Below, one piece after another: positions 4,481-44,824 of a stretch of DNA of 44,824 nt (within the stretch, counting starts at the first letter, position 1; every line of letters begins with the position of its first letter). Position numbers and translations under genes: made by a program. The DNA is taken from IMG/VR virus record IMGVR_UViG_647533158_000002; one strand, 5' to 3'. This DNA is from a virus (Duplodnaviria > Heunggongvirae > Uroviricota > Caudoviricetes). The notes under the pieces are model-generated. The model did not search any database and was not told the DNA's origin. It saw nothing but the letters and a program-made list of their open reading frames with translations.

Positions 4481-4858
4481 TTAGTGATTCAGGCCGTTAC
4501 CGCGTCCGTCGAGAAAAACTTCCACGAGCAAATCACGGGTATAAGTGCGCTCGATGCCGCGATGCAGATAAAGCCGTCCGCGTAAATTAGCTGATGCAGT
4601 CCAGGTACCATCTTTGTGTTTGACCAGCATTCCTGGCATGACCGCACCTCGATTAACGGTCTGCGTTCCATAATGTTGATGAACCATAAAAACTCCTGCC
4701 CGTAAGCTGGGCTGCTGAACATATAGAGACTTCTGCGCGTATTCAGGCGGTGGATGGCCGCCGGTTGTCATAACTAAGCCGCCTCGTTGAAGCGACTGAG
4801 GTATGAAGTGTTGAGTTGATTTCAGCTGGTCACACCGACGTTCACGCGTCCGCTTCAC
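4481..4858 (-). CDS. hypothetical protein in the N slot; possible N-like antiterminator (Arg-rich N-terminus)
   Basis: Only ORF between the putative pL/OL region and gam; from GTG at 4858 (GGAG 7 nt upstream) the N-terminus reads MKRTRERR..., resembling the lambda N arginine-rich motif; rest of protein not recognisable; start codon and function uncertain. Confidence 0.3.
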
Positions 4859-4959
4859 CCCTCGCACTCCCCGGAGCCTGCTGAAATTCAAGCTGCGGAT
4901 CTAAGCGGTCATCGCAACGGTGAATCAGGTGGTTGCCGTATCGTTGTGTTGTTGCGATG

Positions 4960-5060
4960 AATTTATTTAAAACTATAGTTGTTTTATCGTCAACAACAAA
5001 AGTTGTTTTATTGGTTGTTTTAGATGTAACTGGTTGTATTTAGGATGGGTTTATTTTGTG
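4960..5060 (-). promoter_or_regulatory. putative pL promoter with OL-like operator repeats
   Basis: Minus strand: -35 TTGACG (plus 4988-4993), 17-nt spacer, -10 TTAAAT (plus 4965-4970); overlapping repeats GTTGTT / AACAAC-aaaa-GTTGTT and TGGTTGTT that recur in the OR region. Confidence 0.4.
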
Positions 5061-5130
5061 ACTTGCATCGCATAGCGATAACTGAAGGGAGATTGTGGTG
5101 GTTTTTTGAACGGTATATGTGATGAGGGGA

Positions 5131-5163
5131 GGGGATAAAAGAAAACCCGGCACGGTGGCCGGG
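5131..5163 (-). terminator. rho-independent terminator closing the cI-kinase-phosphatase transcription unit
   Basis: Minus strand CCCGGCCACCGTGCCGGG hairpin followed by TTTTCTTTT, directly after the phosphatase stop. Confidence 0.6.
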
Positions 5164-5167
5164 AAGT

Positions 5168-5911
5168 TTACAAATACTTTACATTTACCGCTATAAGAGA
5201 ATAATCGTCAGTCGGGCCTTTTGTCTCTATTCTTCGCATTAGGCTGGAGGCAAACCTTGATGCGGTTGACAATGTACGGTAAGAAAATCGTGGGCGTTGC
5301 TCCCAAAAGGTATGCGCGCCATCAGACATGATGAATAGAGATAGAACACCATCGTCAAGAGGAAGTTCATCTTTATCAATATTTATGACTTGATGTTGAA
5401 GGGGGATCTTGGCAGCAAGTGCAGTTGTAATAATATTTTTACCTTTTGCATTTTTGAGCTGTCGAGCTGTATAAATACCGCTATCTATCAACATTTGATG
5501 TTGAGTATGATCTGTTGTTAATTGGATTAGCTTATTTCCATTTTTTAAATAAACACGACAGTCACCTACATGTATAATTGTTAGACCTTGATTGTGAAGT
5601 AGGCACATTGTTAAAGTTGTAGCAGCAGATGCTAATTCTTTATCAACTGACGAAAGAGATGCCACCTTTTCTTGTAGGGTCTTAAGTAAGGATAAGACAT
5701 TGTCTTCATGAGTGAAGCTGTCTTTAATACTATACAAATGATTTATTACTGCTGCAGATGCTTCTTTTCCTCCTTTATAACCACCAACCCCATCAGCTAT
5801 AGCCATAAGATAACCATTTGGTGTTTGAAGTGGATAAAGCACGCTATCTTGATTTTCCCTGCCATTATGTTTTGGTACAGAAAATATGGATGATGAGAGT
5901 ATGCTAATCAT
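5168..5911 (-). CDS. PP2C-family (PPM) Ser/Thr protein phosphatase
   Basis: 247 aa; PP2C motifs visible: AIADGVGG, HVGDCRVY, LIDSG, MSDGAH; ATG overlaps the kinase TGA stop (ATGA) indicating translational coupling; AT-rich codon usage. Confidence 0.8.
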   Translation of the reverse strand: MISILSSSIFSVPKHNGRENQDSVLYPLQTPNGYLMAIADGVGGYKGGKEASAAVINHLYSIKDSFTHEDNVLSLLKTLQEKVASLSSVDKELASAATTLTMCLLHNQGLTIIHVGDCRVYLKNGNKLIQLTTDHTQHQMLIDSGIYTARQLKNAKGKNIITTALAAKIPLQHQVINIDKDELPLDDGVLSLFIMSDGAHTFWEQRPRFSYRTLSTASRFASSLMRRIETKGPTDDYSLIAVNVKYL

Positions 5912-6633
5912 AAGCGTTTCAACTCCAATTCCTCAAAGATCTGCTCTACGGTCAGGAATCTTTTGTTAAGTTGTCTATGCGTACATTTGTTTATTATATC
6001 ATCAAAACCATCAATATTTAATTCTTCAATTAAAATACCAATTGAATATATATCTGATTGTTTTGAATATCCGTTGAGGAAAACGTTGTAATCAAAGTAT
6101 TTAGGAGTAGCGGGGTATTGGCCAATTTGTGTTAATAGCTGTGTATTGGCATCTGGTGACACATTTTTTGCAAGGCCGAAGTCAGATAACTTATAAATTC
6201 CATCTTTAAATTTTAGTACATTTAGTGGTTTTATATCCCGATGAAGATATCCTTTCTTATGAATCCATCCGACGGCATTTAGTACCATTTTTACAATAGA
6301 GATTTTTTCAGCCTTTGTAAGAGTTCCACTTTTTATTTCTTCTTCAAGATTTGTTTCTGCTAGTTCCATTACGAACCAAGGCTGAGCATTCTGTAAGTGG
6401 CATATGAATATTTGGACAATATTAGTATGCAGGCATTCAGTTTGATATCTTACTTCTCGTTCAAATCTGGTAAAGAGTTCAGGATCTGTTGCATCAGGTC
6501 GTAAAATTTTTCTGGCATATAGACCACAAATTTTTCTTTGTGAGTTATATAACCTTATTTTTTCTACAAGGCCAAAACCGCCAGAACCAATTACTTCTAG
6601 GGGTTCTATTAGGTAATTCCCACGTTCTTCCAT
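5908..6633 (-). CDS. Hanks-type (eukaryotic-like) Ser/Thr protein kinase
   Basis: 241 aa; Gly-rich loop IGSGGFGLV, catalytic loop HRDIKPLN, DFG motif (LSDFGLAK); AAGGA RBS 7 nt upstream of ATG at 6633; AT-rich relative to flanks. Confidence 0.85.
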   Translation of the reverse strand: MEERGNYLIEPLEVIGSGGFGLVEKIRLYNSQRKICGLYARKILRPDATDPELFTRFEREVRYQTECLHTNIVQIFICHLQNAQPWFVMELAETNLEEEIKSGTLTKAEKISIVKMVLNAVGWIHKKGYLHRDIKPLNVLKFKDGIYKLSDFGLAKNVSPDANTQLLTQIGQYPATPKYFDYNVFLNGYSKQSDIYSIGILIEELNIDGFDDIINKCTHRQLNKRFLTVEQIFEELELKRL

Positions 6634-6728: not shown

Positions 6729-7418
6729 TTATCCATGCTTCCTATACGTCTGCGGCATGCTCCCGATGACTTTCCCGAAGATGAATACCCGGTTCATCTC
6801 GTCTTTCTCGATTGGGTCCCACGGTGAGTAGCTCTTGTTATCAGAGATAACCAGCAGTTTATCCTTCATCATTTGCAGGCGCTTTACATGGGCTGTGTCG
6901 TCGTACAGAAACGCATAGATACCATCACCGTCGAAAGATTTAACCGTGATATCAACGAACAGCAGATCACCTGGTTCGATCGTTCCTGACATGCTGTCAC
7001 CGCGTACGTTAATGATACGGATATTTTCCGCCTTCCTGCCATCGAACATGTGACGAGCATCGTCAAACGAATACTCAACCGAACGTAGAACTTCTACAAA
7101 CTCACGGTTGATGACTCCCGGCCCGGCACTCACTTCGATATCAAGAACGTCAATCTTAAAGTATTTGGAATGGCTGACAGTTGTTTGTATTGGTTGCACT
7201 GTACTGTCTGACATATTTCCAACGCCAGAAGATAACCATTCTGCGCGCACACCCAAAGCGTTCGCGATCTCCACGATTTTAGTTGTTTGGTTAGCTTTCC
7301 CTGTTTCGATTTTCTGAATAGCTGCTTGGCTAACCCCGACCAAATCCCCAAGCGCCTTTTGTGTAAGGCCTCGCGCTAATCTGGCTTCTTTAAGTCTTTC
7401 TGAGAGTGTTGTTTTCAT
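6729..7418 (-). CDS. cI: CI-type prophage repressor (HTH_XRE N-domain + S24 LexA-like peptidase C-domain)
   Basis: HTH LTQKALGDLVGVSQAAIQKIE; Ala-Gly cleavage site (SAGPG); catalytic GDSM and VKRL motifs; start placed at ATG 7418 (MKTTLSE...) rather than upstream alternative start so that an operator region remains. Confidence 0.85.
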   Translation of the reverse strand: MKTTLSERLKEARLARGLTQKALGDLVGVSQAAIQKIETGKANQTTKIVEIANALGVRAEWLSSGVGNMSDSTVQPIQTTVSHSKYFKIDVLDIEVSAGPGVINREFVEVLRSVEYSFDDARHMFDGRKAENIRIINVRGDSMSGTIEPGDLLFVDITVKSFDGDGIYAFLYDDTAHVKRLQMMKDKLLVISDNKSYSPWDPIEKDEMNRVFIFGKVIGSMPQTYRKHG

Positions 7419-7522
7419 AGTCCAAATGTACAACCAAGGTTTTATTTCATCAAACGAAAATGGTTGTTGACTAAAAACAACCATGGTTTTAATCTTGATT
7501 CAAATTAACCACGGAGGTTGTT
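7419..7522. promoter_or_regulatory. OR-like operator/promoter region (divergent pRM / pR)
   Basis: Between divergent cI and cro; inverted repeats AACC-aa-GGTT (7432-7441), TGGTTGTT-n7-AACAACCA (7461-7484), CAACCATGGTT (7479-7489); plus-strand -35 TTGACT at 7467-7472 with candidate -10 TAATCT 17 nt downstream; cro RBS GGAGG. Confidence 0.5.
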
Positions 7523-7753
7523 ATGAACCCAGCCATCAAAACAGCGATCAATATCGTTGGTTCACAAAAGAAACTAGGCGCTGCCTGCGAAGTTTCACAG
7601 CAGGCCGTCTATAAGTGGCTTCACAACAAAGCAAAGGTATCCCCTGAACATGTCGGCAGCATTGTTACGGCTACTGGTGGAGTAGTGAAGGCATACCAGA
7701 TTCGCCCGGATCTTCCGAAGTTGTTTCCACACACTGAAAAGAACGCAGCTTAA
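7523..7753 (+). CDS. cro: Cro-like HTH repressor
   Basis: 76 aa, HTH (QKKLGAACEVSQQAVYKW), divergent from cI, strong RBS. Confidence 0.8.
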   Translation: MNPAIKTAINIVGSQKKLGAACEVSQQAVYKWLHNKAKVSPEHVGSIVTATGGVVKAYQIRPDLPKLFPHTEKNAA

Positions 7754-7822
7754 ATTTCCATTTCACGCTCTTTAACAATAAGCAATCAACTTAACAGTCA
7801 ATTCAAACTAAAGGAGTCAATT

Positions 7823-8362
7823 ATGCAACCACTTACATACCAACAGACTAGCGGATTTAGCCCGACTGCGGTGATAAATCGTTCTCAAACAAAACAAGCT
7901 CCAGGCCACGAAAAAATCCGTGATGCCGTCCGCGCCTGGTCGGCTGTAGATAATCAGGATGTCGTTGCCGCACTCATTGTGAATGAGTATCGGGAGCAGG
8001 GCGGCGGCACCATCGATTTCCCTGATGATGTCAGCCGTGCACGCCAGAAGCTGTTCCGCTTCCTCGATAACAAATTCGATTCTGAAAAATACAGAAATAA
8101 CGTGCGTGAACTGACCCCGGCAATTCTGGCGGTACTACCGCTGGAATATCGCGGTTACCTAGTTGAGCAGGATAGCTTCATGGCTCGGCTGGCTGAAATG
8201 GAAAAGGAACTCAGTGAGGCAAAGCAGGCGGTCATTCTCAACGCACCACGCCACCAGAAACTGAAGGAGATGAGTGAAGGCATTGTGTCGATGTTTCGAG
8301 TAGACCCGGATCTGGCTGGTCCACTGATGGCAATGGTCACCACCATGCTGGGGGCAATATGA
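7823..8362 (+). CDS. cII-slot protein (CII/YdaT-like family suspected), function uncertain
   Basis: 179 aa ORF with AAGGAG RBS between cro and O where lambda has cII; not similar to lambda CII by eye. Confidence 0.55.
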   Translation: MQPLTYQQTSGFSPTAVINRSQTKQAPGHEKIRDAVRAWSAVDNQDVVAALIVNEYREQGGGTIDFPDDVSRARQKLFRFLDNKFDSEKYRNNVRELTPAILAVLPLEYRGYLVEQDSFMARLAEMEKELSEAKQAVILNAPRHQKLKEMSEGIVSMFRVDPDLAGPLMAMVTTMLGAI

Positions 8363-10375: not shown

Positions 10376-10442
10376 TGAAACAGGTGAGTTGAGTTCAAAC
10401 TGTAGTACAATTCTCTCCAGTTTGAACAGGAAAGAATATGCT

Positions 10443-10775
10443 ATGAACCCTTATATTTATCTTGGTGGTGCAATACTTGCAGAGGTCATTGGTACAACCT
10501 TAATGAAGTTTTCAGAAGGTTTTACACGGTTATGGCCATCTGTTGGTACAATTATTTGTTATTGTGCATCATTCTGGTTATTAGCTCAGACGCTGGCTTA
10601 TATTCCTACAGGGATTGCTTATGCTATCTGGTCAGGAGTCGGTATTGTCCTGATTAGCTTACTGTCATGGGGATTTTTCGGCCAACGGCTGGACCTGCCA
10701 GCCATTATAGGCATGATGTTGATTTGTGCCGGTGTGTTGGTTATTAATTTATTGTCACGAAGCACACCACATTAA
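10443..10775 (+). CDS. emrE: small multidrug resistance efflux transporter EmrE
   Basis: 110 aa from ATG 10443; MNPYIYLGGAILAEVIGTTLMKFSEGFTRLWPSVGTIICYCASFWLLAQ... recognised as EmrE; four hydrophobic helices. Confidence 0.9.
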   Translation: MNPYIYLGGAILAEVIGTTLMKFSEGFTRLWPSVGTIICYCASFWLLAQTLAYIPTGIAYAIWSGVGIVLISLLSWGFFGQRLDLPAIIGMMLICAGVLVINLLSRSTPH

Positions 10776-10804
10776 AATAATTTGTTTCTAAACGACTAAA
10801 ATAT

Positions 10805-10837
10805 GGAGGCTCTTATATTTATATGAGCCTCGTTTTA
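10805..10837 (+). terminator. rho-independent terminator after emrE
   Basis: GGAGGCTC...GAGCCTC inverted repeat followed by GTTTTAT. Confidence 0.5.
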
Positions 10838-11029
10838 TGCTTTTTGTTAATGTCTTTATTTTTTATGTATTCTTTTGTGCTTTCAAGATTATGGCGTAAG
10901 AAAATTGCAATACGATTATTGTTGTATATTCAAGATAATGTGACCTTAATTGTCTTTTTAAATAAAAATTAAACAAAAATTATATCCCACCACTAAGGTT
11001 TATAAAAGCATACGTTAGCAGGTGTCACC

Positions 11030-12556
11030 ATGAAAAAAGCCATAGCATATATGCGATTTTCATCACCAGGTCAGATGTCTGGCGACTCATTAAACCGACA
11101 GAGAAGACTTATTGCTGAATGGTTAAAGGTAAATAGTGATTATTATCTTGATACCATAACATATGAAGATTTAGGATTAAGTGCATTCAAAGGAAAGCAT
11201 GCACAATCAGGAGCTTTTTCGGAATTTTTAGATGCTATAGAGCATGGTTATATATTGCCAGGAACTACATTGTTAGTTGAAAGTCTGGACAGACTTTCAA
11301 GAGAAAAAGTCGGTGAAGCGATTGAACGTCTGAAATTGATTTTGAATCACGGTATTGATGTTATAACTCTTTGCGACAATACAGTCTATAATATTGACTC
11401 TTTGAATGAGCCATATTCATTAATAAAAGCCATACTTATAGCACAAAGGGCAAATGAAGAAAGCGAGATAAAGTCAAGTCGGGTTAAATTATCATGGAAG
11501 AAAAAACGGCAGGATGCACTGGAATCAGGTACGATTATGACGGCGTCTTGTCCGAGATGGCTCTCCTTAGATGACAAAAGAACGGCTTTTGTTCCAGACC
11601 CCGACAGGGTGAAAACTATTGAGCTAATTTTTAAACTCAGGATGGAAAGGCGCTCATTGAATGCAATAGCCAAGTATTTAAATGATCATGCTGTAAAGAA
11701 TTTCTCAGGAAAAGAAAGTGCATGGGGACCTTCTGTAATTGAAAAATTATTAGCGAATAAAGCTCTGATAGGTATATGCGTACCTTCATATCGTGCAAGA
11801 GGGAAAGGGATAAGTGAAATCGCTGGCTATTATCCCAGAGTCATATCAGATGATTTGTTTTACGCTGTACAGGAAATTCGGTTGGCACCTTTTGGTATTA
11901 GCAATAGTAGCAAGAATCCTATGCTAATAAATCTACTTCGAACAGTTATGAAGTGTGAGGCTTGTGGTAATACCATGATTGTTCATGCGGTATCTGGAAG
12001 TTTGCATGGCTATTATGTTTGTCCGATGAGAAGATTACATCGATGTGACAGGCCATCAATAAAAAGAGATTTGGTTGATTATAATATCATTAATGAATTG
12101 CTTTTTAATTGTAGCAAAATTCAACCAGTTGAAAACAAGAAAGATGCTAATGAAACTTTAGAGTTAAAAATTATTGAGCTTCAGATGAAAATTAATAATT
12201 TAATCGTTGCATTGTCTGTCGCGCCTGAAGTTACCGCTATAGCAGAGAAAATAAGACTATTAGATAAGGAATTACGAAGGGCTTCGGTATCATTGAAAAC
12301 TTTGAAGAGTAAAGGTGTAAATTCATTCAGTGATTTTTATGCTATTGACTTAACCAGTAAAAATGGACGAGAGTTATGCCGTACACTTGCCTATAAAACA
12401 TTCGAAAAAATCATAATTAATACGGATAATAAAACCTGTGATATCTATTTTATGAATGGCATTGTTTTTAAACACTATCCTTTAATGAAAGTAATATCCG
12501 CCCAGCAGGCGATAAGTGCTCTCAAATATATGGTTGATGGTGAGATTTATTTCTAA
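11030..12556 (+). CDS. ybcK: large serine recombinase (DLP12 YbcK-like)
   Basis: 508 aa; N-terminal resolvase-type domain (AIAYMRFSSPGQ... with active-site Ser region), C-terminal Cys cluster (CEACGN...C...C); AT-rich. Confidence 0.85.
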   Translation: MKKAIAYMRFSSPGQMSGDSLNRQRRLIAEWLKVNSDYYLDTITYEDLGLSAFKGKHAQSGAFSEFLDAIEHGYILPGTTLLVESLDRLSREKVGEAIERLKLILNHGIDVITLCDNTVYNIDSLNEPYSLIKAILIAQRANEESEIKSSRVKLSWKKKRQDALESGTIMTASCPRWLSLDDKRTAFVPDPDRVKTIELIFKLRMERRSLNAIAKYLNDHAVKNFSGKESAWGPSVIEKLLANKALIGICVPSYRARGKGISEIAGYYPRVISDDLFYAVQEIRLAPFGISNSSKNPMLINLLRTVMKCEACGNTMIVHAVSGSLHGYYVCPMRRLHRCDRPSIKRDLVDYNIINELLFNCSKIQPVENKKDANETLELKIIELQMKINNLIVALSVAPEVTAIAEKIRLLDKELRRASVSLKTLKSKGVNSFSDFYAIDLTSKNGRELCRTLAYKTFEKIIINTDNKTCDIYFMNGIVFKHYPLMKVISAQQAISALKYMVDGEIYF

Positions 12557-13020
12557 ATAATGATCTCGGATTTTAAGTTATGCTATGGTGATAAAGTGCA
12601 AGACAGAATTAATTATCTTTGACGAAACTTAATGGGTAATTACTTTGTTTGCTCCCACAAGCGAGTTTTGTACGGCTGTATTGGGGTAGTAAATGAGCTA
12701 TACAATCTTAATCATTTGTTAGGTGAGAACTCTTGGTCGCAGATTCAAATACTGAAAATACGTGACAAATTATTATGAGCAAAATGGTGTATGTCACGTA
12801 TTTTGAATGGTAGGTTAAAAAATAACACCGACTTTCGTAGGTATTACTAATAATAAAGCAGAGTTTTTAGATAGTATCAATGTGCTTTGTGTATATTGTG
12901 GCAAATAATTGGGTTGGGGGTACAATTGTGATTGCTTTTGCATGAACATTGCGCCTTTATGCATAATGAGATAAAGGAATATCAAATAAAATAACGATAG
13001 GTCATAACAAAGAGGTTTTT

Positions 13021-13572
13021 ATGAAAACACTTATCGTTTCAACTGTATTGGCATTCATAACATTTTCTGCGCAGGCTGCAGCATTTCAGGTCACTAGTAA
13101 TGAAATAAAAACAGGAGAGCAACTTACAACGTCTCATGTCTTTTCTGGATTTGGGTGTGAAGGTGGTAATACATCGCCCTCATTAACCTGGTCTGGTGTT
13201 CCTGAAGGTACCAAAAGCTTTGCCGTAACTGTATATGATCCAGATGCACCTACAGGCAGTGGTTGGTGGCATTGGACTGTTGTTAATATTCCAGCAACAG
13301 TAACATATTTGCCCGTTGATGCAGGGAGACGTGATGGAACAAAACTGCCGACTGGTGCTGTTCAAGGCCGAAATGATTTTGGCTATGCTGGGTTTGGTGG
13401 CGCATGTCCTCCTAAAGGAGATAAACCACATCATTACCAGTTTAAAGTATGGGCTCTAAAAACTGAAAAGATTCCTGTAGATTCTAACTCCAGCGGAGCG
13501 TTAGTTGGTTATATGCTTAATGCTAATAAAATCGCAACCGCTGAGATAACACCAGTTTATGAGATAAAGTAG
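13021..13572 (+). CDS. ybcL: PEBP/YbhB-family periplasmic protein (YbcL-like)
   Basis: 183 aa with signal peptide (MKTLIVSTVLAFITFSAQAAAF); PEBP-like motifs DPDAP and HHY. Confidence 0.85.
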   Translation: MKTLIVSTVLAFITFSAQAAAFQVTSNEIKTGEQLTTSHVFSGFGCEGGNTSPSLTWSGVPEGTKSFAVTVYDPDAPTGSGWWHWTVVNIPATVTYLPVDAGRRDGTKLPTGAVQGRNDFGYAGFGGACPPKGDKPHHYQFKVWALKTEKIPVDSNSSGALVGYMLNANKIATAEITPVYEIK

Positions 13573-13581
13573 GGTGAGAGT

Positions 13582-14379
13582 ATGCTGGCAAGAGGTAAGA
13601 CTAACTTAAAGATCGAAGAAATACGGATGCATAAACATCATGAGATTCATAGGGTTAAGCCTCTTATGCCAGCTTTGTGTCGTATCCGTCAGGGAAAGAA
13701 AGTTATCAATTGGGAGACGCATACTTTAACTGTTGATAATAATCAAATAATATTATTTCCTTGTGGTTATGAATTTTATATTGAGAATTATCCTGAAGCA
13801 GGGCTTTATCTTGCAGAAATGCTTTACTTACCCATTGATTTAATTGAGAGTTTCCAAAAACTTTATACGGTAACTGATCAAATACGTAACAAAACAAGTT
13901 TATTTTTACCTCAGAATCCTGAGTTAATATATTGTTGGGAGCAACTAAAAACATCTGTTTCCCGAGGCTTCTCAACTAAAATTCAGGAGCACTTAGCAAT
14001 GGGCGTTCTACTTTCGTTAGGAGTGAATCATGTTAATCATTTACTTTTATCATATAGTAAACAATCATTGATAAGTCGTTGTTATAACCTGCTGCTATCC
14101 GAACCCGGCACAAAATGGACAGCAAACAAGGTTGCTCGATATCTCTACATTTCTGTTTCTACATTACATCGCCGTCTAGCAAGCGAGGGGGTAAGTTTCC
14201 AAAGTATACTGGACGATGTGAGGTTAAATAATGCGTTGTCTGCTATACAAACGACGGTAAAACCTATAAGCGAGATTGCCAGAGAAAATGGTTATAAGTG
14301 TCCTTCTCGTTTTACTGAAAGATTTCATAATCGTTTTAATATAACACCAAGAGAGATAAGAAAAGCTTCCAGAGAGTAA
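13582..14379 (+). CDS. ybcM: AraC-family transcriptional regulator (YbcM-like)
   Basis: 265 aa; C-terminal AraC-type HTH region; start codon choice (13582 vs 13627) uncertain. Confidence 0.75.
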
Positions 14380-44240: not shown

Positions 44241-44824
44241 TGGCATTCAGAATGAGTGAACAACCACGGACCATAAAAATTTATAATCTGCTGGCCGGAA
44301 CTAATGAATTTATTGGTGAAGGTGACGCATATATTCCGCCTCATACAGGTCTGCCAGCAAACAGTACCGATATTGCACCGCCAGATATTCCGGCTGGCTT
44401 TGTGGCTGTTTTCAACAGTGATGAGGCATCGTGGCATCTCGTTGAAGACCATCGGGGTAAAACCGTCTATGACGTGGCTTCCGGCGACGCGTTATTTATT
44501 TCTGAACTCGGCTCATTACCGGAAAATGTCACCTGGTTATCCCCGGAAGGGGAGTTTCAGAAGTGGAACGGCACAACCTGGGTGAAAGATGCAGAAGCAG
44601 AAAAACTGTTCCGGATCCGGGAGGCGGAAGAAACAAAAAACAGCCTGATGCAGGTAGCCAGTGAGCATATTGCGCCACTTCAGGATGCTGCAGATCTGGA
44701 AATCGCAACGGAGGGAGAAACCTCGTTGCTGGAAGCCTGGAAAAAGTATCGGGTGTTGCTGAACCGTGTTGATATATCAACTGCACCTGATATTGAGTGG
44801 CCTACGAACCCTGTCAGGGAGTAA
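44240..44824 (+). CDS. tfa: tail fibre assembly protein Tfa
   Basis: 194 aa [44 protein letters not shown]...; ATG overlaps stf stop; stop is the last codon of the window. Confidence 0.9.

Follow-up and report, generated by a model that had tools for sequence, protein, structure and literature searches.

Organization of the immunity region

The sequence considered here is a 44,824-bp stretch of viral DNA (IMG/VR record IMGVR_UViG_647533158_000002, hereafter called the window at its full length), and our subject is a set of short inverted repeats that occur at both ends of its immunity region: between the repressor gene cI and the divergent cro gene (the rightward operator region, OR), and in a non-coding stretch beyond the genes that follow cI (the leftward operator region, OL). 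The window is a lambdoid prophage of the tRNA-Arg (argU) / DLP12 site of Escherichia coli, in which the rightward order of genes is int, an xis region, exo, bet, gam, a Kil-type division inhibitor and the non-coding stretch that holds OL (Table 1). A cI protein with an S24 domain, a divergent cro and replication genes downstream make this a lambdoid immunity region, and the presence of a YdaS-family protein (PF15943, 4e-17) in the Cro slot and a YdaT-family protein in the cII slot relates the switch to those of the YdaS/YdaT type. We consider it highly probable (roughly 0.85) that the repeats are the cI and Cro operators of a lambdoid, 434-like immunity switch, arranged at the promoters pR and pL.

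Table 1. Predicted operators and promoters of the immunity region, and the genes and other features around them. Positions are those of the window.
Feature	Position	Strand	Description
Kil-type division inhibitor	4481-4687	minus	68 amino acids; Kil / cell-division inhibitor annotation in related records
Immunity-specific OL cassette	4958-5053		Lambda_4C10 near-identical on either side, different here, same length
pL (predicted)	4965-4993	minus	-35 TTGACG 4993-4988, 17-nt spacer, -10 TTAAAT 4970-4965
OL1	4969-4982		ACAACTATAGTTTT on pL strand; in pL spacer; 1 mismatch
OL2	4993-5006		ACAACAAAAGTTGT; perfect match; promoter-side base is first T of pL -35; kept in related loci
Proximal solitary half-site	5012-5018	minus	ACAACCA on pL strand; 12 bp upstream of OL2 start
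Distal solitary half-site	5031-5037	minus	ACAACCA on pL strand; 31 bp upstream of OL2 start
Intrinsic-terminator-like hairpin	5146-5163	minus	Ends cI-kinase-phosphatase operon ahead of OL
PP2C phosphatase	5168-5911	minus	Between OL and cI
Ser/Thr kinase	5908-6633	minus	Between OL and cI; with the phosphatase, in the slot of lambda rexAB
cI repressor	6729-7418	minus	229 amino acids; Pfam HTH_3 5.5e-13, Peptidase_S24 1.2e-18; recognition helix SQAAIQKIE
pRM (predicted)	7425-7453	minus	-35 TTGATG 7453-7448, 17-nt spacer, -10 TACATT 7430-7425
OR3	7430-7443		ACAACCAAGGTTTT; in predicted pRM spacer; 1 mismatch to ACAAC-N4-GTTGT
OR2	7454-7467		ACGAAAATGGTTGT; consensus right half only; 2 mismatches
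pR (predicted)	7467-7495	plus	-35 TTGACT 7467-7472, 17-nt spacer, -10 TAATCT 7490-7495
OR1	7477-7490		ACAACCATGGTTTT; in pR spacer; last T is first base of -10; at most 1 mismatch
Site 4 (candidate fourth operator)	7508-7521		ACCACGGAGGTTGT; overlaps cro Shine-Dalgarno GGAGG 7513-7517; 1 mismatch
Cro	7523-7753	plus	76 amino acids; Pfam YdaS_toxin 4e-17, P22_Cro 8e-5; helix SQQAVYKW
YdaT-family gene, cII slot	7823-8362	plus	PF06254, 1.4e-29; followed by O, P, ren

Shared words at OL and OR

The pentamer GTTGT and its complement ACAAC occur 88 times in the 44,824 bp (0.2 per 100 bp), and the two densest 100-bp intervals of the whole sequence start at 4938 (seven copies) and at 7418 (four copies). 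The motif search that the initial annotation had called for thus confirms both regions as the richest, with the reservation that the GTTGT copies at 4943-4953 are not immunity-specific, because they lie inside a flank shared with a heteroimmune phage. When the OL segment (4958-5053) was compared with the OR segment (7419-7522) in an unbiased k-mer test with 500 shuffles, 13 7-mers were common to the two against a null of 2.8 +/- 2.1, a number reached by none of the shuffles, as were eight 8-mers against a null of 0.75. All of the k-mers held in common belong to the ACAACCA / AAAACAAC / GTTGTTGA family. A search for ACAACNNNNGTTGT with at most one mismatch returned five matches in the window, all five within OL or OR: OL1, OL2 (perfect), OR3, OR1 and site 4. 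Shuffled sequences gave 1.46 +/- 1.24 such matches, with one shuffle in 100 reaching five; it is the location of these matches, and not their number, that is improbable.

The strings on which the operators were originally proposed are all present, with AACCAAGGTT at 7432-7441, CAACCATGGTT at 7478-7488, TTGACT at 7467-7472, TGGTTGTT-n7-AACAACCA at 7461-7483, TGGTTGTT again at 5012-5019, GTTGTT at 4978-4983, 5002-5007 and 5014-5019, and AACAAC-aaaa-GTTGTT at 4992-5007. The unit to which they belong is another matter. The predicted operator unit is a 14-bp palindrome, ACAAC-N4-GTT(G/T)T, of which AACC-aa-GGTT and CAACCATGGTT, though real, are only the cores at OR3 and OR1, and TGGTTGTT-n7-AACAACCA, read at first as a single operator, instead comprises the right half of OR2 and the left half of OR1 around the pR -35.

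Operators and promoters at OR and OL

At OR, OR3 and OR1 are full sites, OR2 is without a left half and site 4 is partly supported, the start-to-start steps being 24, 23 and 31 bp (the last of these to site 4). A site with invariant arms and a variable centre stands in the position of OR3, 11 nt from the cI ATG, in more than 30 loci whose repressor has the SQAAIQKIE helix. OR2 adjoins the pRM -35 and covers the first T of the pR -35; its start lies 23 bp from that of OR1 in 11 of the 11 loci tabulated and 24-25 bp from that of OR3, and its left half is degenerate in every locus compared. OR1 keeps the form ACAAC-YWWR-GTTTT in all 11 loci and differs from OR3 at a single central base.

The chances that site 4 is a real operator seem to us evenly balanced. 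It is found with at most one mismatch in all 11 tabulated loci and in three others (L014, L031 and L033), and is degenerate in Izhakiella, Brenneria, Erwinia, Symbiopectobacterium and Pantoea. The conserved ribosome-binding context ACGGAGGTTGT alone supplies seven of its 10 specified positions. As an RNA hairpin site 4 is no better than shuffled sequences (z = -0.05), and in 10 of the 11 loci its arms carry a mismatch, the position of which varies, with no compensating change.

At OL, the starts of OL1 and OL2 are 24 bp apart in 11 of 11 loci, and two solitary half-sites lie upstream of OL2. The distal one recurs as AAAACAACCA in the same orientation in 12 of 12 loci, at -31 in four (window, Klebsiella and Kosakonia) and at -41 to -43 in eight, distances of about three or four helical turns, and it never has a matching second arm. 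This half-site is a candidate degenerate OL3; it may be a weak OL3, an anchor for looping or a Cro site. The proximal half-site is less widespread, one this near OL2 (-12 or -13) having been found in the window and in locus L008 only. No full OL3 was found within two mismatches of the motif, only half-sites, and the 434 arrangement of three full operators at both OR and OL is absent, OL here consisting of two full operators plus solitary half-sites.

The predicted sigma-70 promoters were placed by reading the sequence together with the comparative conservation of the hexamers. The predicted pL mirrors the plan of pR, in the order O2, TTGAC, O1 and then the -10, and at both promoters the first T of the -35 is also the last base of O2, and the spacer is taken up by O1, whose GTTTT arm continues into the -10. 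The pR hexamers recur at the same positions in related loci, as TTGAnT with TAATCT, TATTAT, TAATAT or TATAAT, and the TTGACn and TT(A/T)AAT of pL are kept across genera. Since the cI ATG (7418) is 7 nt past the pRM -10 and has no Shine-Dalgarno sequence, the cI mRNA is probably leaderless; in the related loci checked by eye a TAnnnT hexamer likewise lies 6-7 nt ahead of the cI ATG, again with no Shine-Dalgarno sequence. Leaderless repressor genes are documented for lambda cI and for paaR2 of CP-933P (PMC8630535).

Conservation of the sites and covariation with the repressor

Alignment with the heteroimmune phage Lambda_4C10 delimits immunity-specific cassettes at OL and OR that are bounded by shared sequence: the flanks are near-identical, and the two genomes diverge exactly at 4958-5053 (with no change of length), at OR and in the region coding for the N-terminal domain of cI. 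Lambda_4C10 has no match to ACAAC-N4-GTTGT. Its OL and OR share a vocabulary of their own (CAATAGCA and related words), and cross-comparisons between the window and Lambda_4C10 are at chance. A further locus, L005, combines a similar cI C-terminal domain with an N-terminal domain of the 4C10 type and operators of the 4C10 type.

One cI scan of species-representative genomes gave 35 loci. The 11-locus set with the SQAAIQKIE helix is drawn from the window, Klebsiella, Kosakonia, Providencia, Morganella, Photorhabdus, Xenorhabdus and two phages (Klebsiella phage ST101-KPC2phi6.1 and Providencia phage PSTCR7lys), and the Cro helix in these loci reads (S/T)QQAV(Y/F)KW. Matches with at most one mismatch occur almost only at OR and at OL downstream of cI, at a varying distance and whatever the cargo between. 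Among the 44 strong sites, A1, A3, A4, G10, T11, T12 and T14 are found in 100% and C2 and C5 in 98%, while position 13 is G or T and positions 6-9 are variable. In 22 further loci (from Enterobacter, Izhakiella, Pectobacterium, Samsonia, Brenneria, Erwinia, Symbiopectobacterium, Enterobacillus, Serratia, Pantoea and a Klebsiella sp.) cI is 33-41% identical overall, the helix is kept and ACAAC-N4-GTT(G/T)T is fixed 11 nt from the start codon. Within E. coli, substitutions sit in the centres of sites, in spacers and in the tolerated G/T at position 13 of the 5012-5018 half-site, and no arm change was found in OR1-3, OL1-2 or the distal half-site.

The Stx phage PA28 and phage HK639 have the helix SQPAIQKM and carry ATAAC-N4-GTTAT at the homologous OR positions and at OL (L042, 3421-3483 and 4672-4710; L043, 3421-3483 and 6028-6087), with three sites at OR and, at OL, two in PA28 and three in HK639. 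Relative to the operators of the window this is, as judged from the sites, a natural one-base switch of specificity, and the predicted operator specificity covaries with the recognition helix of cI. A chromosomal, cI-like Pectobacterium repressor with a helix identical to that of the window (L015, 3873-5528, Pectobacterium zantedeschiae; also L016-L027) has a perfect ACAACCTAGGTTGT ahead of its own gene, and in Pectobacterium a Mor-family gene (Pfam Mor, 5e-40) is preceded, at a distance of about 95 nt, by the O1-type site ACAACTATAGTTTT; the L015 locus holds four motif matches where 0.2 are expected. No cro is visible in the 125 nt upstream of the Pectobacterium repressor gene, and sites that persist without a visible cro point to the cI-type protein as their reader. 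The locus resembles the rdgA-rdgB circuit of pectin lyase, which is SOS-inducible and would then share its operator with the E. coli prophage; in the literature searched, RdgA/RdgB were found in secondary mentions only.

What is observed directly is where the sites lie, that they are conserved and that they covary with the helix, and the comparisons support the suggestion, made when the repeats were first noticed, that half-sites common to both ends of the immunity region would mark pL and pR and set the specificity of this cI.

In a separate observation, locus L046 (E. coli KCJ3K291, 190-1513) has an OR/cro module that is 86% identical to that of the window, every operator arm being intact; next to it lie a longer XRE-type repressor gene and a lambda-CII-family gene, the latter in place of the YdaT-family gene. 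These joins show mosaic exchange immediately to the right of cro.

Relation to phage 434

Among solved structures, the cI N-terminal domain has its best match in the 434 repressor (1per_L, E = 4.5e-9; phmmer against the PDB), and cI residues 5-68 align without gaps to residues 2-65 of the 434 protein, residue n corresponding to 434 residue n-3. The best solved relative of Cro is the Cro protein 3bd1 (E = 7e-4). Taken from the annotated 434 genome (OL657226.1), the 434 operators are 14 bp long, of the form ACAA-N6-TTGT, with starts 22-23 bp apart and a step of 31 bp from OL2 to OL3. Comparison with the operators of known immunity types, as originally recommended, finds a fit: the vocabulary of the window is indeed distinct from that of lambda, but it is not novel, as it matches the outer ACAA...TTGT of the 434 operators.

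The resemblance to 434 comprises a homologous repressor N-terminal domain that aligns without gaps, 14-bp symmetric operators with outer ACAA/TTGT and a non-conserved centre, three OR sites with starts 22-24 bp apart, OR3 in the pRM spacer, the 31-bp step from OL2 to the distal OL element and a LexA-like autocleavage domain in the repressor. The window differs from 434 in that OR2 has one good half and OL3 is only a half-site; in the place of the pR -35, which lies between OR3 and OR2 in 434 and between OR2 and OR1 here; in its apparently leaderless cI, where 434 cI has an annotated ribosome-binding site; and in a YdaS/P22-Cro-like Cro, a YdaT-family protein in the cII slot and a possible fourth site.

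The predicted specificity differs from that of 434 in the recognition helix and in operator position 5. The recognition helix is SQAAIQK here and TQQSIEQ in 434 (Gln28 kept, Q29->A, S30->A, Q33->K), and operator position 5 is C in 98% of the 44 strong sites and in none of the 12 half-sites of the six 434 operators, which have G, T or A. Heteroimmunity toward 434 is thus predicted. In co-crystal work on 434, Gln28 reportedly reads A1, Gln29 base pairs 2-3 and Gln33 base pairs 4-5, and changes at operator positions 2 and 5 would fit such contacts.

Proposed switch and alternative explanations

In the switch that we propose, a dimer of cI, and probably also one of Cro, would recognize the 14-bp two-fold symmetric site, reading the outer five base pairs ACAAC/GTT(G/T)T directly, the central four not being conserved. 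Repressor on OR1 and OR2 would shut pR (cro, the ydaT-type cII, O and P) and could activate pRM; as OR2 is half-degenerate, it presumably requires cooperative binding. Repressor or Cro on OR3 would shut pRM, the putative source of the leaderless cI mRNA. OL1 and OL2, flanking the pL -35 in a mirror layout, would shut leftward transcription (kil, gam, bet and exo), with the phased upstream half-site possibly serving as a weak OL3, and site 4, which covers the ribosome-binding site of cro, may act as an extra roadblock immediately past the predicted pR start. The S24 domain suggests a repressor that is cleavable upon RecA activation, and hence SOS induction. Binding, order of occupancy, cooperativity, looping between OL and OR and the transcription start sites are what we infer by analogy with 434, lambda and CP-933P.

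Several points weigh against this reading. Searches of the literature returned no report of binding, footprinting or transcript mapping for this immunity type. With at most one mismatch allowed, matches are only modestly (about threefold) more numerous than in shuffled sequence, and the conservation counts are not independent, because many related loci share ancestry. None of pR, pL and pRM was called by a consensus promoter scan, their hexamers falling under the threshold, and the pL -10, TTAAAT, is without the consensus A at position 2. As OR1 and OR3 differ at one central base, a lambda-like order of filling is unreadable from the sequence, and OR2 and the upstream elements of OL are half-sites only, the occupancy of which would depend on cooperativity.

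If the repeats are not 14-bp operators of cI and Cro, they might be parts of longer units, with TGGTTGTT-n7-AACAACCA as one 23-bp site on the pR -35 for a single dimer or tetramer. The region does form a perfect 9-bp inverted repeat (7460-7484), an 8-bp version of which is perfect, by eye, in six of the 11 tabulated loci. However, outward-facing 5-mers have no constant spacing (9 nt at OR but 10 nt at OL in the window, and scattered values across loci), whereas inward-facing arm pairs are separated by an invariant N4 in 49 cases across the 11 loci; moreover, OR3 stands alone as ACAAC-N4-GTTGT, with no partner at the long-repeat spacing, in more than 30 loci, and a 434-like domain spans a 14-bp site, so that we regard a 23-bp unit as highly improbable. 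Still less credible, in our judgement, is that the palindromes act as RNA or DNA hairpins, whether as a terminator or attenuator of a leftward transcript or by sequestering the cro Shine-Dalgarno sequence. The segment 7455-7490 folds at -9 to -10.9 kcal/mol (z = -3.2 and -3.8) and is marked as terminator-like on both strands by a scan, but its stem has just three G-C pairs, the hairpin at site 4 has the chance-level fold and uncompensated arm mismatches given above, and, being situated upstream of the pR start and downstream of that of pRM, the stem would be transcribed only from a putative upstream promoter. As the arms of the hairpin are operator half-sites, their complementarity would be a by-product. 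An Rfam scan by E-value of OL, OR and the pL leader gave only a chance CRISPR-DR match (E = 0.39), and a scan at the gathering threshold found nothing at OL, OR or the pL leader, its only match being IS009 at 44583-44781 (225.6 bits).

It is also very unlikely, though of these alternatives the one to which we give most weight, that Cro (YdaS family) or another factor is the main reader of the sites and that cI recognizes something else there. The Cro helix SQQAVYKW likewise starts with Ser-Gln and is conserved alongside the operators, and the footprints of YdaS and repressor overlap in CP-933P (PMC8630535). Yet the motif follows the cI helix even where no cro start is visible, in the Pectobacterium rdgA-like loci, and in PA28 and HK639 a different cI helix goes with a different motif. 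To our knowledge, the operators of every lambdoid switch studied are common to repressor and Cro, which makes this idea complementary to the proposed switch more than opposed to it. Compositional chance in A/T-rich intergenic DNA could be argued from the same threefold excess over shuffles, but it is effectively refuted by the comparative data, namely where the matches lie, how constant their spacing is, their conservation across genera and the heteroimmune controls.

Comparison with other switches

Read as cI and Cro operators, the repeats can be compared with three more systems. The PaaR2/YdaS/YdaT switch of CP-933P (PMC8630535; PMC9986795) likewise has YdaS- and YdaT-family proteins in the Cro and cII slots, a leaderless repressor gene, as predicted for the window, and an OL/pL copy past cargo genes co-transcribed with the repressor. 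Its intergenic region of about 100 bp holds four palindromes, two of them well conserved over pRM and pR, and IR2 and IR4 are without a left half-site (PMC8630535), an alternation of full and half sites that parallels OR3 and OR1 versus OR2 and site 4 in the window. The differences lie in the consensus, GTTTAGTAA in CP-933P, in the 18-bp and equally spaced palindromes there as against 14 bp and steps of 24, 23 and 31 bp here, and in the cargo, a toxin-antitoxin pair there and a kinase with a phosphatase in the window; the likeness is one of architecture. PaaR2 was considered as a member of the same immunity type and rejected, its operator consensus GTTTAGTAA being unrelated.

With lambda the window shares, as predicted here, the logic of divergent pRM and pR, three tandem operators, a leaderless cI and RecA-dependent cleavage, as well as cargo downstream of cI (the rexAB slot) and an OL about 2.4 kb away. 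Lambda differs in its 17-bp operators of unrelated sequence and in its type of repressor N-terminal domain, and the pL slot of the window is without an N gene. HK639 and PA28 have 56-58% identity to the window in the N-terminal domain and share with it the 14-bp architecture, its distance from the cI start and three OR sites with starts 24-25 bp apart; they differ in the helix and operator sequence given above (SQPAIQKM with ATAAC-N4-GTTAT) and have no site 4.

Cargo slot and neighbouring genes

E. coli 2012C-4221 matches both queried segments (OL, 4940-5060; OR, 7400-7540) at 100%, and O, P and ren are annotated at its matching locus. Its cargo between OL and cI is unlike that of the window, consisting of an ASCH-domain gene and a hypothetical gene. 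The kinase of the window matches Pfam Pkinase (2.5e-32) and the PADLOC models PD-T4-6 (1.4e-34) and mad6 (3e-39). Other phages of the same immunity carry GevT/GevA, HipD/HipA, RexA/RexB or nothing between cI and OL, and this variation at the kinase/phosphatase spot suggests a hot spot for variable cargo or defence genes; a literature search on GevT/GevA gave nothing useful. The terminator-like hairpin that ends the operon is kept in PhiR47_2, Lambda_4C10 and the cargo-less PhiR34_1, and the sequence of about 90 bp between the OL cassette and this hairpin (5054-5145) is conserved in homo- and heteroimmune relatives, PhiR34_1 included.

The open reading frame that the initial annotation had assigned to the N slot carries a Kil / cell-division inhibitor annotation in related records and is not N, and no N gene is present between pL and kil (4481-4958, minus strand). 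A pL leader of about 270 nt is common to the window and the heteroimmune Lambda_4C10; at 271 nt it has no unusual predicted structure (z = -0.64) and no Rfam match. HK639, the cI of which belongs to the same family as that of the window, has an annotated putL-like RNA.

To the right of cro, a direct repeat, AGTCAATT, occurs twice at 7796-7822 with starts 19 bp apart, just upstream of the ribosome-binding site of the ydaT-like gene and across it; this region may be an establishment promoter or a YdaT operator. Inspection by eye of the interval from cro to the ydaT-like gene, where no pattern search was run, showed no CP-933P YdaT site (TTGATT-N6-AATCAA). A repeat search gave a weak, imperfect 9-nt inverted repeat at 7718-7726 / 7784-7792. 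After ren, the window carries emrE, a serine recombinase (ybcK-like, 11030-12556), a ybcL-like gene and an AraC-type gene (10389-14379), as in DLP12; emrE and ren are both annotated in E. coli 2012C-4221.

Prevalence and implications

This immunity is widespread. Among 5,426 complete E. coli genomes the OL segment is present in 1,486 and the OR segment in 1,521 (about 28%), and the same immunity is found in recently deposited phages (IdasGreatGrand, Turner, PhiR5_1, PhiR26_1, PhiR34_1 and PhiR47_2), whose cargo in the cI-OL interval differs. None of the 12 OL matches listed has an annotated feature beneath it, and operators are not annotated in the database records opened for this immunity type. 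Full-text literature searches by operator strings returned unrelated papers only, with no description of the operators, and searches by the names of the PhiR and IdasGreatGrand phages returned nothing on immunity. The mechanism would be that of a textbook 434/lambda switch, and the understanding of how such switches work is unchanged by these operators; the operator specificity is very common and apparently uncharacterized.

If true, the four-site layout of OR, shared with the unrelated CP-933P switch, would point to a general design for switches of the YdaS/YdaT type. The helix-operator pair is common to prophages of more than 30 Enterobacterales species and to the Pectobacterium rdgA-like / Mor-family loci, and through such a shared pair prophage repressors and host SOS-inducible circuits could cross-regulate one another. 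We put forward these two propositions, the four-site OR with an OL of two full sites and a phased half-site, and SOS cross-regulation between prophage and host, only tentatively, as jointly they seem to us rather doubtful.

The operator definition would allow pR, pL and pRM to be placed in many genomes and delimits the cI-OL cargo slot that holds defence genes. Together, ACAAC-N4-GTT(G/T)T and SQAAIQKIE would make it possible to predict from sequence which prophages are homo- or heteroimmune to one another, and the operators form a natural specificity series for 434-type helices, with ACAA(G/T/A) in 434, ACAAC in the group of the window and ATAAC in HK639 and PA28.

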